In this document: positions 2,231-6,441 of the stretch, one piece after another
How the letters are laid out: each line of letters starts with the position of its first letter
Position numbering within the stretch: the first letter of the stretch is position 1
IMG/VR virus record: IMGVR_UViG_2690316278_000002
Length of the DNA: 6,441 bases
Direction: 5' to 3' (one strand)
From: a virus
Taxonomy: Duplodnaviria > Heunggongvirae > Uroviricota > Caudoviricetes
Position numbers and translations under genes: made by a program
Notes under the pieces: model-generated
The model's database searches: none
The model's input: only the letters and a program-made list of their open reading frames with translations
Told to the model about the DNA's origin: nothing

Positions 2231-3092
2231 TTACTTCACAACTCCCGGAAAGCTGACATTTGAACGCCAGCTATCCCAGTTAAACGTCACCCACCGACAA
2301 CCGTTCATGGTCATGCGGTCCATAATCCTCTCACCAAGAAGCGTGCTCATTGCGGCATGATTCAGGTTTGTTAACANNNNNNNNNNNNNNNNNNNNNNNN
2401 NNNNNNNNNNNNNNNNNNNNNNNNNNNNNNNNNNNNNNNNNNNNNNNNNNNNNNNNNNNNNNNNNNNNNNNNNNNNNNNNNNNNNNNNNNNNNNNNNNNN
2501 NNNNNNNNNNNNNNNNNNNNNNNNNNNNNNNNNNNNNNNNNNNNNNNNNNNNNNNNNNNNNNNNNNNNNNNNNNNNNNNNNNNNNNNNNNNNNNNNNNNN
2601 NNNNNNNNNNNNNNNNNNNNNNNNNNNNNNNNNNNNNNNNNNNNNNNNNNNNNNNNNNNNNNNNNNNNNNNNNNNNNNNNNNNNNNNNNNNNNNNNNNNN
2701 NNNNNNNNNNNNNNNNNNNNNNNNNNNNNNNNNNNNNNNNNNNNNNNNNNNNNNNNNNNNNNNNNNNNNNNNNNNNNNNNNNNNNNNNNNNNNNNNNNNN
2801 NNNNNNNNNNNNNNNNNNNNNNNNNNNNNNNNNNCGCGTATTTTTGCCCGTCGTTCTGCACCTGATAATTCGCAAACGAGCATTTGCTGTGCAGAGGCTG
2901 GATGCCCGAACGATTCAGGATTTTTTCCACCCGCAACTGGCGATTCTGGCGGTTAATCTCCTCGCTGCGTTTTCGTCCTTCAGCAAGTTGCCATTCCCGC
3001 CACTCCTCCACCGTCCGGTACGGTGGAACCGCCCCCTGTGGTGCAAGTCTGTGAATACGTTCAAGAACCCCGGCTGCCGCAATGTTTTTCAT
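2231..3092 (-). CDS. DnaC-like replicative helicase loader (prophage paralog, YdaV-position); central ATPase region masked; apparent frame discontinuity across the mask
   Basis: N-terminus (3092 down to 2835) MKNIAAAGVLERIHRL...NRSGIQPLHSKCSFANYQVQNDGQKYA matches E. coli DnaC (...NRSGIRPLHQNCSFENYRVECEGQMNA) as I recall it. C-terminus (2376 down to 2231) LTNLNHAAMSTLLGERIMDRMTMNGCRWVTFNWDSWRSNVS matches the DnaC C-terminus (LTNSNMEEMTKLLGERVMDRM...WVIFNWDSYRSRV). The two visible parts are in different reading frames (span 862 nt = 3n+1). The start ATG is 6 bp downstream of the initiator's stop. Confidence 0.75.
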
Positions 3093-3098
3093 GCCACA

Positions 3099-4163
3099 TC
3101 ACCCCCTGAATCCCGGCGGAATTTCGGTATCCGGTTCAGAAATATGATTCACACAACGCTGGTTGTTCGTGCCGCTTACCGGGAGCAACCAGGGGTTTTC
3201 AAAATTCCGGTCCGGCCCAAAAAACGTCGTCGCTCGCTGAACAAATTCCGTTCCCGCTTTCCCGGTCGCCGCCAGGTATCTCGCGTAACGCCTCACACCA
3301 TCCAGCATGGTCTCTGGTGGCACCCCCTCGCGCAATCTGGCCTTCCAGGCACTGAATGCGGATTTCTTCGGGTTTGCCCCGGCACGCAACGGGTATTCCC
3401 GCCAGACCTGTTCGAACACATCCGGATAATCCACTCGTCCCACAGGCTGCCCGGTGTTTTCCGGGGCTACCCGATCGGCTTCCCGCTGAATGGCGGAATC
3501 GGCTTCAGGCTGCTGCAGTTGGAGTGATTGCTCCGGCCTTGCGGTCATCACCTGCTGCACAGCGCCCGAATCGGCTTTCAGCGCATACGCTGAATCGGCT
3601 TCCGGTGTCGAGCCTGCTGGCTGACCAGGATTGACGGTCTGAACATCCCCTGCCTGGTTCGTGGCGTTTTTTACGCCATGGACCATAGTGTTTTGATCTT
3701 CTTTATCTGTATCTTTATCTGTATCTGTCGTGACTCGTCGTGACATGTGCGTGACATTTCGTGACGCGCCGTGACAATCGCCATTTTGTTCCCGCTTTCT
3801 TTCCCTCTCTCGCTGCGCCCTCTTGCGCTCTGCAGGAGATTTTGCGGTTTGCGAAATATTGCCGTTGTCCTCTTTAAGCACCTGGCGTTTTTCCCATCCA
3901 GTGATTAAATCACCATCAAGTACCCGCCCCTGCATCGTCTGCAAAATTGAATCAATTACCTCTTCTGTCACGTCGAGCGCACTTGCCAAATCTTCTGTCG
4001 TGACATCAATGTGACCTCGCGTGACATTTCGTGACGCGCTCACCAGGAGGTGGATATACACTGCCATCACTGTTGCAATTGGCTGCCCTGACACCCTGGC
4101 AATTGTTCGCCACTTAGGGTCATTTGGCATGTCATGCCATAATCTGAGCCAGGCGTTAGCCAT
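3099..4163 (-). CDS. Phage replication initiation protein with DnaT-like C-terminal tail (YdaU-position), containing intragenic iteron-like repeats
   Basis: 354-aa ORF from ATG 4163-4161 with SD-like GAGGTGAGT immediately upstream (the track's first codon at 4169 is GTG). The C-terminus ...NHISEPDTEIPPGFRG resembles the C-terminal tail of E. coli primosomal protein DnaT (...VSEPDSQIPPGFRG, as I recall it). It sits immediately upstream of a DnaC-like gene, as in the chromosomal dnaT-dnaC operon. The protein carries an internal repeat SRNVT...VTT(E/D)D encoded by the GTGAC arrays. Confidence 0.7.
   Translation of the reverse strand: MANAWLRLWHDMPNDPKWRTIARVSGQPIATVMAVYIHLLVSASRNVTRGHIDVTTEDLASALDVTEEVIDSILQTMQGRVLDGDLITGWEKRQVLKEDNGNISQTAKSPAERKRAQRERERKREQNGDCHGASRNVTHMSRRVTTDTDKDTDKEDQNTMVHGVKNATNQAGDVQTVNPGQPAGSTPEADSAYALKADSGAVQQVMTARPEQSLQLQQPEADSAIQREADRVAPENTGQPVGRVDYPDVFEQVWREYPLRAGANPKKSAFSAWKARLREGVPPETMLDGVRRYARYLAATGKAGTEFVQRATTFFGPDRNFENPWLLPVSGTNNQRCVNHISEPDTEIPPGFRG
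3701..3724. repeat. Exact tandem duplication of the 12-mer CTTTATCTGTAT within a T-rich tract next to array A
   Basis: CTTTATCTGTAT at 3701-3712 and again at 3713-3724, followed by a partial CTGT. On the minus strand it encodes the low-complexity peptide DTDKDTDKED. Confidence 0.6.
3730..3775. repeat. Iteron-like array A: five direct GTGAC motifs phased at 10-11 bp
   Basis: GTGAC at 3730, 3740, 3751, 3761 and 3771 (spacings 10, 11, 10, 10). Contains the 19-mer GTGACATTTCGTGACGCGC (3751-3769), which recurs exactly at 4021-4039. Confidence 0.55.
3967..4039. repeat. Iteron-like array B: four direct GTGAC motifs phased at 10-11 bp plus one inverted copy
   Basis: GTGAC at 4000, 4011, 4021 and 4031. 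An inverted GTCAC lies at 3967-3971. TCTTCTGTC is repeated at 3961 and 3991. The 19-mer at 4021-4039 is identical to 3751-3769. Confidence 0.55.
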
Positions 4164-4234
4164 ACTCACCTCTTCTGATACCGAATCTTTTTACTCACGA
4201 GTTGCCGGGAGCGATTCGATATGGCTATTGTCAG

Positions 4235-4660
4235 TCAATGTACTGCCACAGCATTTCCTGCCGGGCCACCACGGTTCATCTGATTGAAACCGGCGATTGC
4301 CACTGCGACAAAATCATCAGCGTCTCTCACCAGTCGTTCATGCGTCTCCACCAGTTCCCGAAAATAAGCTGAACTGTGGCTGCGCATTCGAGCCACCAGC
4401 GGAGGTGGCATTGCCCTTTCGATCGCAGGTAACAACGCCTGAATTTTTTCAACAGCGTCAGGGGTGTCTTTATCCAGCCAACGGAAAATCTTTTGGGTGT
4501 TGAGATAAAGCGTGTTGTGCTTGCTGTCGTTATGCAGAACCGGAAACGTCATTCCCAGTTCGAAATAAACCCTGGTTATTTCAGCTGCCGGAACTTTTTC
4601 ACCGTCCGGATGCGCCCAGGCTTTCATCGCCATGCGGATGTGTTCATGCTTGATTTTCAT
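4235..4660 (-). CDS. ydaT: YdaT-family protein (putative toxin / cII-position regulator of Rac-like prophages)
   Basis: 141-aa ORF starting MKIKHEHI..., matching my recollection of the N-terminus of E. coli Rac YdaT. Its ATG (4660-4658) overlaps the stop of the upstream Cro-like gene (4659-4657) in an ATGA arrangement. G-rich SD-like GGCGGGGG lies upstream. Confidence 0.7.
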   Translation of the reverse strand: MKIKHEHIRMAMKAWAHPDGEKVPAAEITRVYFELGMTFPVLHNDSKHNTLYLNTQKIFRWLDKDTPDAVEKIQALLPAIERAMPPPLVARMRSHSSAYFRELVETHERLVRDADDFVAVAIAGFNQMNRGGPAGNAVAVH

Positions 4661-4920
4661 GAATCAACCCCCGCCGATGGTTGTGTGTTAGCCTGAAACT
4701 CAGCAGGCAAGCCGTCAGTTGGGTTGGGGTAGGTTTTACTGTCAATCTCATGTGGGGTCACCACCCATCCCGTTGCTTCACACCAACGTAATATTTTTTC
4801 TCCTGTAAGTTTTGCACGCCCCGTTATAACGTGGCTGACCATCCCTTGGGATGCGCCAACAATCTCAGCAAATGAACTCTGGGTTATATGAAAATGATGC
4901 AAATATTCTCCAAGATTCAT
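4657..4920 (-). CDS. Cro-like HTH DNA-binding protein (first gene of the early operon; YdaS-position)
   Basis: 87-aa ORF from the first ATG (MNLGEYLHHFHITQSSFAEIVGASQGMVSHVITGRAKLTGEKILRWCEATGWVVTPHEI...). Helix-turn-helix-like segment QSSFAEIVGASQGMVSHVI. Divergent from the cI-like gene. Weak SD-like AGGG about 7 nt upstream. The track ORF starts at TTG 4947; I prefer ATG 4920. Confidence 0.7.
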   Translation of the reverse strand: MNLGEYLHHFHITQSSFAEIVGASQGMVSHVITGRAKLTGEKILRWCEATGWVVTPHEIDSKTYPNPTDGLPAEFQANTQPSAGVDS

Positions 4921-5031
4921 AATCCGCCCTATGTGATGTGTTACCAATGCATAATTAATAGCACTGTTATTTTTAAAAGTAAATAGTGATGCTATTTCAA
5001 AGTGATTAGCAATCTTATTAGAATTGGATGT
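4921..5031. promoter_or_regulatory. Divergent promoter/operator region between the cI-like and Cro-like genes
   Basis: 111-bp AT-rich intergenic spacer between divergent starts (4920 minus, 5032 plus). Two 15-bp operator-like sites: AATAGCACTGTTATT (4957-4971) and the near-perfect palindrome AATAGTGATGCTATT (4982-4996), centres 25 bp apart. Candidate + strand promoter: -35 TTCAAA (4996-5001), 17-bp spacer, -10 TAGAAT (5019-5024), which puts the transcript start at or next to the ATG at 5032 (leaderless, as for lambda PRM). Candidate minus-strand promoter: -35 TTTACT (complement of 4978-4983), 17-bp spacer, -10 TATTAA (complement of 4955-4960). Promoter hexamers were assigned by eye. Confidence 0.5.
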
Positions 5032-5459: not shown

Positions 5460-6441
5460 NNNNNNNNNNNNNNNNNNNNNNNNNNNNNNNNNNNNNNNNN
5501 NNNNNNNNNNNNNNNNNNNNNNNNNNNNNNNNNNNNNNNNNNNNNNNNNNNNNNNNNNNNNNNNNNNNNNNNNNNNNNNNNNNNNNNNNNNNNNNNNNNN
5601 NNNNNNNNNNNNNNNNNNNNNNNNNNNNNNNNNNNNNNNNNNNNNNNNNNNNNNNNNNNNNNNNNNNNNNNNNNNNNNNNNNNNNNNNNNNNNNNNNNNN
5701 NNNNNNNNNNNNNNNNNNNNNNNNNNNNNNNNNNNNNNNNNNNNNNNNNNNNNNNNNNNNNNNNNNNNNNNNNNNNNNNNNNNNNNNNNNNNNNNNNNNN
5801 NNNNNNNNNNNNNNNNNNNNNNNNNNNNNNNNNNNNNNNNNNNNNNNNNNNNNNNNNNNNNNNNNNNNNNNNNNNNNNNNNNNNNNNNNNNNNNNNNNNN
5901 NNNNNNNNNNNNNNNNNNNNNNNNNNNNNNNNNNNNNNNNNNNNNNNNNNNNNNNNNNNNNNNNNNNNNNNNNNNNNNNNNNNNNNNNNNNNNNNNNNNN
6001 NNNNNNNNNNNNNNNNNNNNNNNNNNNNNNNNNNNNNNNNNNNNNNNNNNNNNNNNNNNNNNNNNNNNNNNNNNNNNNNNNNNNNNNNNNNNNNNNNNNN
6101 NNNNNNNNNNNNNNNNNNNNNNNNNNNNNNNNNNNNNNNNNNNNNNNNNNNNNNNNNNNNNNNNNNNNNNNNNNNNNNNNNNNNNNNNNNNNNNNNNNNN
6201 NNNNNNNNNNNNNNNNNNNNNNNNNNNNNNNNNNNNNNNNNNNNNNNNNNNNNNNNNNNNNNNNNNNNNNNNNNNNNNNNNNNNNNNNNNNNNNNNNNNN
6301 NNNNNNNNNNNNNNNNNNNNNNNNNNNNNNNNNNNNNNNNNNNNNNNNNNNNNNNNNNNNNNNNNNNNNNNNNNNNNNNNNNNNNNNNNNNNNNNNNNNN
6401 NNNNNNNATGACGGCAGGGTTCAATCTTTAACTATGCAGCA

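Follow-up and report, generated by a model that had tools for sequence, protein, structure and literature searches.

The replication initiator of a Rac-type lambdoid prophage of Escherichia coli ends in a peptide of about 20 residues that, judged from sequence comparison, is a portable C-terminal short linear motif, common to the host protein DnaT and to several structurally unrelated prophage initiators of the Enterobacterales. The initiator is encoded on a stretch of viral DNA of 6441 bases (IMG/VR record IMGVR_UViG_2690316278_000002), referred to here as the window, and is followed by a gene for a DnaC-like AAA+ helicase loader. The assignment of this region to the replication module of a Rac-type (ydaS-ydaT-ydaU-ydaV-like) lambdoid prophage is based on the PHROG, NCBIfam, and Prokaryotic Genome Annotation Pipeline (PGAP) names of its genes, on the flanking cro/YdaS-like and YdaT/cII-like genes, and on the statistics of its iterons. 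The module itself is of a known kind and very common, and the gene pair is ordinary. What appears not to have been spelled out in the literature searched is that the likeness to DnaT takes the form of a discrete, transferable C-terminal peptide.

Extent of the similarity to DnaT

The end of the initiator reads ...SEPDTEIPPGFRG, and in a single BLASTP comparison its residues 332 to 356 align with residues 155 to 179 of K-12 DnaT with 15 of 25 positions identical and 20 of 25 positive (E = 1e-7). The DnaT chains in the PDB (6aep, 2ru8, and 9zbt_D) match the same 21 to 24 or so tail residues only. The conserved ending of DnaT, ...RDVN.vSePD.qIPpGFRG, is present, and its positions are mostly at least 90% conserved in the DnaT alignment. 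The NCBIfam DnaT model NF002770 scores 18.1 bits against a cut-off of 201 and is matched at positions 156 to 179 of its 179 only, rather than over its full length. The resemblance to the DnaT C-terminus claimed in the original prediction, which had been made from the DNA letters alone, is thus upheld by several matches. The peptide occurs in more than one version, RDVNTVSEPDSQIPPGFRG alongside the phage QRCVNHISEPDTEIPPGFRG. In the AlphaFold2 (AF2) model, the tail has a predicted local distance difference test score (pLDDT) of 55 to 75 and no secondary structure, and it is therefore predicted to lack regular structure.

Upstream of the tail, the picture is different. Pairwise comparison with DnaT aligns the last 25 residues and, by BLASTP, nothing outside the tail. 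Neither the N-terminal oligomerisation domain of DnaT nor its acidic PriB-binding linker gives a BLASTP alignment in the initiator, whose N-terminus is modelled as a winged-helix domain. In the AF2 model, a confident helical bundle precedes the tail, and the DnaT domain PF17948 is not detected in it. PF17948 describes the three-helix domain that binds single-stranded DNA (DnaT residues ~89 to 154); at E ≤ 0.1 it has no match in the initiator and none in 115 members of the bundle family, while the positive controls DnaT (3.7e-21), phage L039 (3.9e-18), and the prophage initiator L331 (8.9e-13) all match. From these comparisons, the clear similarity between the initiator and DnaT is confined to the tail.

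It could still be argued that the C-terminal ~110 residues, bundle and tail together, are a diverged true homologue of the DnaT C-terminal domain that forms a DnaT-type filament on single-stranded origin DNA, although we consider this unlikely. Both domains are small three-helix bundles placed directly before the same tail (PMC4132743), and a clear DnaT domain is combined with the tail and a downstream DnaC-like gene in the phage initiators L331 and L333. Comparison by hhalign of the window's bundle, here called type A, with a profile of the DnaT C-terminal domain that had been deepened with host and prophage sequences from a genome scan gives a 28-column local match (P = 2.7e-4) with a score of 25.9, compared with 11.3 ± 2.8 for column-shuffled controls, of which 1 in 100 reaches 25.9. 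The segments that align are AW.AR.reGV..e.l...RYa....AtGK and lWG..L..pvT.eEL...F.aYWqAeGK. The same match has an hhalign probability of 41%, however, and global alignment fails; moreover, PF17948 misses the initiator and all 115 family members, the NCBIfam model finds the tail only, and most members of the bundle family have no tail at all. A homologue search with a phage DnaT-domain sequence found nothing. A very distant kinship of the bundle to DnaT is, on these alignments, unproven.

One ending on several initiator bodies

The motif is made up of some 19 residues, R-D/C-V-N-x-I/V-S/P-x-P-D/E-x-x-I-P-x-G-F-R-G-COOH. A scan of IMG/VR for its coding pattern returned at least 120 loci, and among the matches listed no fewer than six N-terminal types and three unrelated pre-tail domains lead into this ending. 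Counting all sources, at least four kinds of pre-tail region carry it. These are the type-A bundle of the window, the C-terminal domain of lambda O (E = 5e-25 against the lambda protein), a genuine DnaT domain (E = 4e-18 and 9e-13 for PF17948; 45 to 63% identity to DnaT residues 85 to 179, the IMG/VR example having 63% over residues 86 to 179), and the body of Rac YdaU, which aligns with the window initiator over the last 19 residues only (68% identity, E = 7e-6). Two different initiator bodies carry exactly the same last 20 residues.

A second scan, for IPxGFRG followed by a stop codon (x not Pro) in 185,579 species represented by one genome each, gave 47 matches, and all credible ones are in the Enterobacterales. 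They comprise host DnaT variants (IPDGFRG and IPKGFRG) and 20 prophage initiators. DnaT homologues were likewise found in enterobacteria only, and dnaC has been described as a phage gene acquired in the Enterobacteriales (Brezellec 2016, PMC5109545). In host DnaT, the x of IPxGFRG is Pro in Escherichia, Citrobacter, and Klebsiella, Asp in Atlantibacter, Pantoea, Erwinia, Mangrovibacter, and Franconibacter, and Lys in Phaseolibacter; the variant found in a prophage tail does not obviously track that of host DnaT. The prophage initiators L331 (Kluyvera intermedia) and L333 (Kluyvera georgiana) combine the PF17948 domain with the tail and have a DnaC-like gene 2 bp on. The Kluyvera prophage junction is GGA TTC AGG GGG TAA CG GTG AAA AAC, compared with GGA TTC AGA GGG TAA CG ATG AAA AAC in the host. 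L331 also contains in-frame NVT repeats, which correspond to the same GTCAC iteron core as in the window.

The tail and its neighbouring loader gene

The original prediction placed a DnaC-like gene 6 bp after the initiator stop, in the manner of host dnaT-dnaC, and both points hold. The initiator ends with TGA at 3101-3099, followed by the spacer TGTGGC and an ATG at 3092; the host gap is 2 bp. As in the host, a gene with the tail is followed within a few base pairs by a DnaC-family gene whose Shine-Dalgarno sequence lies in the last codons of the gene before it. The layout TTC AGG GGG Txx ... ATG AAA AAC is common to the window pair and to host dnaT-dnaC, and the arrangement TTC AGR GGG Txx is also found in most prophage pairs.

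The identity of the downstream gene is supported at both of its ends. The unmasked N-terminal 86 amino acids match NF009043/PRK12377 (E = 2.5e-47) and the DnaC equivalog NF005931 (E = 1.8e-20) at profile positions 1 to 86, and the unmasked C-terminal 47 amino acids match the same models at profile positions 202 to 248 (E = 4e-22 and 8e-14), so that the N-terminal (DnaB-binding) region and the C-terminal end of the DnaC family are both present. Residues ~87 to 201 fall within the run of N at 2377-2834, on either side of which the reading frames do not agree. The gene is 862 nucleotides long in the window, compared with 747 in an intact relative; the mask may not preserve length, or the window copy may carry an insertion or frameshift. 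The intact relative (L002, from E. coli C325) encodes a protein of 248 amino acids that is 48% identical to K-12 DnaC (E = 5e-87) and carries GKTGTGKNHLAAA and DEIG in the Walker A/B region.

The pairing is seen well beyond the window. At 76 of the 77 DnaC-like loci that have an upstream open reading frame (ORF), that ORF ends ISEPDTEIPPGFRG, although these loci hold near-identical (98 to 100%) DnaC-like copies and are not independent. Of the 20 prophage initiators with variant tails at species level, 16 are followed by a DnaC-like gene, mostly at 2 bp, and so are two metagenomic tail variants; the usual gap between the tail and a DnaC-family gene is 2 to 6 bp. At loci with lambda P, O ends ...TDWIYGV[DE]L in 79 of 79 cases and GFRG in none. 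The lambda-O C-terminal domain thus occurs either with the tail or with the O ending, and which terminal peptide is present changes with the loader type, in what amounts to a natural swap.

Many initiators, nevertheless, carry the tail with no loader gene beside them. Among the IMG/VR matches listed, 65 of 111 loci have no adjacent DnaC-like gene, and for the initiator type of the window the figure is 25 of 27. Such a gene is essentially absent from the flanks (811 kb in total) of the 76 listed loci that have none next door, and the complete genome of phage Tritos, which has the tail in a solo module, contains no DnaC-like or P-like gene. The possibility that the tail marks only initiators with a DnaC-like gene of their own is ruled out by these solo modules. 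Since the tail is frequent without a phage loader, host DnaC must also serve as its partner if it contacts a loader at all. In the solo modules (L003 and a further 64 IMG/VR loci), a DUF977-like gene (MAKVFTQEEREKIK...) comes next after the initiator, at a gap of exactly 40 bp; in the window, this gene is found two genes further on, at 593-1483, beyond the DUF1627 gene at 1484-2227. Either the DnaC-like and DUF1627 genes appear to have been cleanly deleted in the solo form, or the window form looks like an insertion.

It has also to be considered that the tail might be a self-association element that helps the initiator to oligomerise on its iterons and is unconnected with the loader. Iteron-bound initiators must oligomerise, and removal of the last 18 residues of DnaT converts the trimer to a dimer, according to the summary of Szymanski 2013 given in PMC5314882. 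This account is, in our estimation, rather improbable. A peptide carried by at least four unrelated bodies would have no conserved surface on its own protein to dock on, it is predicted to be unstructured, and oligomerisation does not predict that the endings of lambda-O-type initiators should switch with the loader.

Slightly less probable again is that, by imitating DnaT, the tail connects the initiator to the PriA/PriB restart machinery or to some other host factor specific to the Enterobacterales rather than to DnaC/DnaB. The documented partners of DnaT are PriA, PriB, and single-stranded DNA (PMC13377028; PMC5778457), solo modules need some host route for loading DnaB, and the motif is limited to the one order that yielded DnaT homologues. 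In the preprimosome paper (PMC13377028), however, it is the DnaT C-terminal domain that touches PriA and the acidic linker that touches PriB, with the terminal residues not discussed, and the strong positional association of the tail is with DnaC-family genes.

At the DNA level, the tail exists in 60 distinct versions with synonymous variation at every conserved codon, in which all four Pro codons, all four Gly codons, both Asp codons, both Phe codons, and five Arg codons are used. Selection therefore acts on the peptide, even though AGG GGG doubles as the Shine-Dalgarno sequence of the loader gene. The idea that the tail is conserved merely as a ribosome-binding site for the loader is largely refuted by this variation. 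A broader form, in which the shared ending is a by-product of the ribosome-binding site and of a recombination joint of the dnaC-like gene with no role for the peptide, is highly improbable: TTC AGG GGG T(A/G)A is indeed a good Shine-Dalgarno sequence 2 to 9 nucleotides before the loader start, the rare Arg codons AGG and AGA dominate, and the identical last 20 residues on two bodies suggest recent recombination at the joint, but conservation spans 19 residues (57 nucleotides), far past a Shine-Dalgarno sequence, the synonymous codons include CGC, CGG, and CGA for Arg, and the tail persists even with the next gene 40 bp off or missing.

A proposed route for helicase recruitment

We lean, with some reserve, toward a reading in which the window holds a Rac-type module with an internal origin, a likeness to DnaT that is limited to the tail, and a tail that acts as a portable docking peptide for DnaB and a DnaC-family loader. 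The initiator would bind an origin within its own coding sequence, made up of two phased GTCACG arrays and an A/T-rich repeat, and the gene for the DnaC-family AAA+ loader, 6 bp downstream, would be translationally coupled to it. Initiators assembled on the iterons could then capture the complex of DnaB and a DnaC-family loader through their exposed tails. The loader would be the phage's own where one is encoded, and host DnaC in solo modules. Helicase would finally be delivered to the unwound origin, in the way that lambda O achieves through P and that is attributed to DnaT at restart forks.

Docking of the DnaB-DnaC-family complex is the most likely function for the tail because the tail is the sole element that DnaT shares with all of these initiators, because the ending switches with loader type among lambda-O-type initiators, and because the motif is found only in the Enterobacterales, where dnaC reportedly came from phage (PMC5109545). 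The interface between tail and loader put forward in the original prediction is accordingly phrased here as plausible. How DnaT itself recruits DnaB/DnaC is unresolved in the literature (PMC13377028; PMC5778457).

Several observations weigh against docking by the tail. Tail-less type-A C-terminal domains are likewise found ahead of IstB/DnaC-like genes, which means that initiator-loader pairing in general does not depend on a tail. Numerous loci in these counts belong to near-identical E. coli prophages, and the counts do not represent independent events. Tail codons adjoining the loader start would produce linkage without any function. From published work, no physical interaction between DnaT and DnaC has been documented (PMC5778457), and a 2026 cryo-electron microscopy paper on the preprimosome favours the DnaT N-terminal domain as the recruiter of DnaB/DnaC (PMC13377028). 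Trimerisation is the sole biochemical function that has been reported for the last 18 residues of DnaT (Szymanski 2013, as summarised in PMC5314882).

A more far-reaching version can be entertained as a tentative possibility, and it is one that we think has less chance of being right. It holds that the tail is the missing helicase-recruitment handle for DnaT and for at least four unrelated families of prophage initiators, and that the C-terminal domain and tail of dnaT were domesticated together with dnaC as a unit from a ydaU-ydaV-like module. The sequences are compatible with a handle of this kind since the tail persists in phages without a loader, which must use host DnaC, and with joint domestication since the DnaT-domain prophage genes share the host junction almost base for base, including the tail, the 2-bp gap, and the DnaC-like gene.

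Organisation of the module and its candidate origin

The features of the window are collected in Table 1. The window contains N-masked runs at 126-553, 1006-1220, 2377-2834, and 5460-6407, which cover several genes in part; the ATPase core of the DnaC-like gene is hidden, as is most of a cI-like ORF. The stretch is matched in 3263 of 5426 complete E. coli genomes (~60%) and in several sequenced phages, and in some phage records the initiator is already labelled "Primosomal protein I". The profile phrog_3729 ("replication initiation protein") covers the initiator end to end (E = 3e-250). A 96% identical relative in E. coli C325 (L002) is named "phage replisome organizer" by PGAP and is followed, after a 6-bp gap, by an "ATP-binding protein" of 248 amino acids. 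The ATG start of the initiator agrees with the annotation of this relative; the alternative start is a GTG at 4169. The gene at 4235-4660 matches both the Pfam family YdaT_toxin (E = 5e-9) and a CII-like transcriptional activator in PHROGs (E = 3e-40). In RefSeq, K-12 YdaT is now a DNA-binding transcriptional activator, and the "toxin" label is probably misleading.

Table 1. Genes, protein regions, and DNA elements of the window
Feature	Position	Strand	Description
Cro/YdaS-like helix-turn-helix gene	4657-4947	minus	Domain and PHROG matches
YdaT/cII-like gene	4235-4660	minus	Upstream of the initiator
Initiator ("phage replisome organizer")	3099-4163	minus	354 amino acids from ATG; phrog_3729, PGAP relative
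Winged-helix domain	3879-4136	minus	N-terminal, residues ~10-95; presumed to bind iterons
Iteron array 2	3997-4035		GTCAC[G/A] at ~10-11 bp spacing, within the winged-helix coding part
Linker	3444-3785	minus	Residues ~127-240; disordered, low complexity, repeated PEADSA motifs; AF2 pLDDT mostly <50
Iteron array 1	3727-3776		Five GTCACG, at 3729, 3739, 3750, 3760, and 3770; Tandem Repeats Finder (TRF) period 10, 4.9 copies (10-11 bp phasing)
A/T-rich 12-nucleotide tandem repeat	3700-3726		TACAGATAAAGA, 2.2 copies, adjoining array 1; TRF score 54, 100% matches
Type-A helical bundle	3174-3431	minus	C-terminal, residues ~245-330; confident in the AF2 model
DnaT-type C-terminal tail	3102-3161	minus	QRCVNHISEPDTEIPPGFRG; BLASTP against DnaT
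Shine-Dalgarno sequence of the DnaC-like gene	3102-3107	minus	AGGGGG; the last two codons of the initiator (Arg-Gly), read from the sequence
DnaC-like AAA+ helicase-loader gene	2231-3092	minus	NF009043, DnaC equivalog NF005931, phrog_50 ("DnaC-like helicase loader")
DUF1627 gene	1484-2227	minus	

Taken from the AF2 model, the body of the initiator is predicted to be made up of the winged-helix domain, a disordered linker whose coding DNA holds the direct repeats ATCGGCTTC... (D1), and a DnaD-like helical bundle, followed by the flexible tail of ~20 residues. PF04492 (Phage_rep_O) has no match to the initiator, and neither its N- nor its C-terminal domain is of the lambda-O type. The type-A bundle is a widespread domain of replication proteins that is not clearly DnaT. 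An exhaustive search of representatives recovered 4028 at E ≤ 1e-3, joined to many different N-terminal DNA-binding domains and mostly missing the tail. A word-indexed homologue search with the C-terminal 127 amino acids returned E. coli fragments only, and Foldseek against the PDB gave only spurious matches to HIV matrix (E ~1). Family members without the tail (among P0196-P0320) show recurrent endings of a different kind. Among them is ...P[DE]W[AL][KR]xx, such as PEWARGLS, PYWAKGAAE, and PDWLKD, and another resembles the tail that single-stranded DNA-binding protein carries, ...DG[TR]x[AG]F, such as REDGTHAF and IEPDGRF. A protein with an ending of the P[DE]W type sits before an IstB-like gene and a phage DnaB helicase. 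These alternative endings may be docking peptides for particular partners.

The iterons within the initiator gene, which the original prediction had described, are real. GTCACG is found 9 times compared with 2.06 expected, a count reached by none of 200 shuffles, and it is organised in two arrays phased at 10 to 11 bp, the second being a 39-nucleotide direct repeat with 72% identity to the first. The adjoining 12-nucleotide repeat encodes DTDKDTDK and differs in copy number between prophages, with extra copies in the relative L002 (a 6-residue indel). By analogy with the lambda ori, it is a candidate DNA-unwinding region. The window therefore has the hallmarks of a lambda-type origin inside an initiator gene, namely phased iterons in the ORF with an A/T-rich stretch alongside, and those of a lambda-type module, with the loader gene directly downstream across a 6-bp gap and the whole placed in an immunity-replication operon.

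Relation to known systems

The closest known instance is the ydaU-ydaV pair of the Rac prophage of K-12, a strain that thus already holds the tail and loader pair on another body. Rac ydaS-ydaT-ydaU-ydaV has the same order as the window, with cro-like, YdaT/cII-like, initiator, and DnaC-like genes. In the ydaU-ydaV locus (L342, NC_000913.3 1421119-1422729), YdaU ends ...RQVNTVSLPDSAIPPGFRG (also given as ...VSLPDSAIPPGFRG), and the DnaC-like YdaV (MKNIA...) begins 6 bp on, as in the window. Unlike the window initiator, YdaU has a DUF1376 N-terminus and another pre-tail region.

Host dnaT-dnaC shares with the window the tail (15 of 25 residues), a DnaC-family gene in the next position with its Shine-Dalgarno sequence in the last codons, and a loader that begins MKN. 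The window initiator differs from host DnaT in that no DnaT N-terminal domain, acidic PriB-binding linker, or PF17948 was detected in it, in its sequence-specific winged-helix domain and internal iterons, and in a gap of 6 rather than 2 bp. Lambda O-P resembles the window in having iterons in the initiator gene beside an A/T-rich stretch and the loader gene directly downstream, but the loader is P rather than a DnaC-type AAA+ protein and O ends ...TNTDWIYGVDL. The C-terminal domain of lambda O is present in some initiators with the tail, although not in that of the window.

A further comparison is offered by DopC-DopE of the Cellvibrionales and Oceanospirillales, in which the C-terminus of the O-like DopC contains a "DnaT_C" motif (HHpred against 2ru8_A; Brezellec 2017, PMC5509034). 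Like the window initiator, DopC is encoded just upstream of a phage-derived helicase handler; unlike it, DopC is chromosomal and domesticated, has no iterons, and is partnered by a P-like loader, DopE (PMC5509034). DopC is the published precedent for a DnaT C-terminal sequence on an initiator-like protein (PMC5509034). DnaD-type replisome organisers (DnaD of Bacillus subtilis and the "DnaD-like helicase loader" PHROGs) are also among the closest systems.

Taken at the level of the peptide, one short piece of DnaT has been grafted by nature onto several unrelated origin-binding proteins, each of which needs a DnaC-loaded helicase. The comparison turns a vague idea about operon neighbours into a precise question about a peptide and its partner in the hand-off from DnaT to DnaB/DnaC. 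It also raises the prospect that a phage replication module may have been the source of dnaT, as of dnaC, and that the C-terminal part of dnaT and dnaC may have been acquired together.

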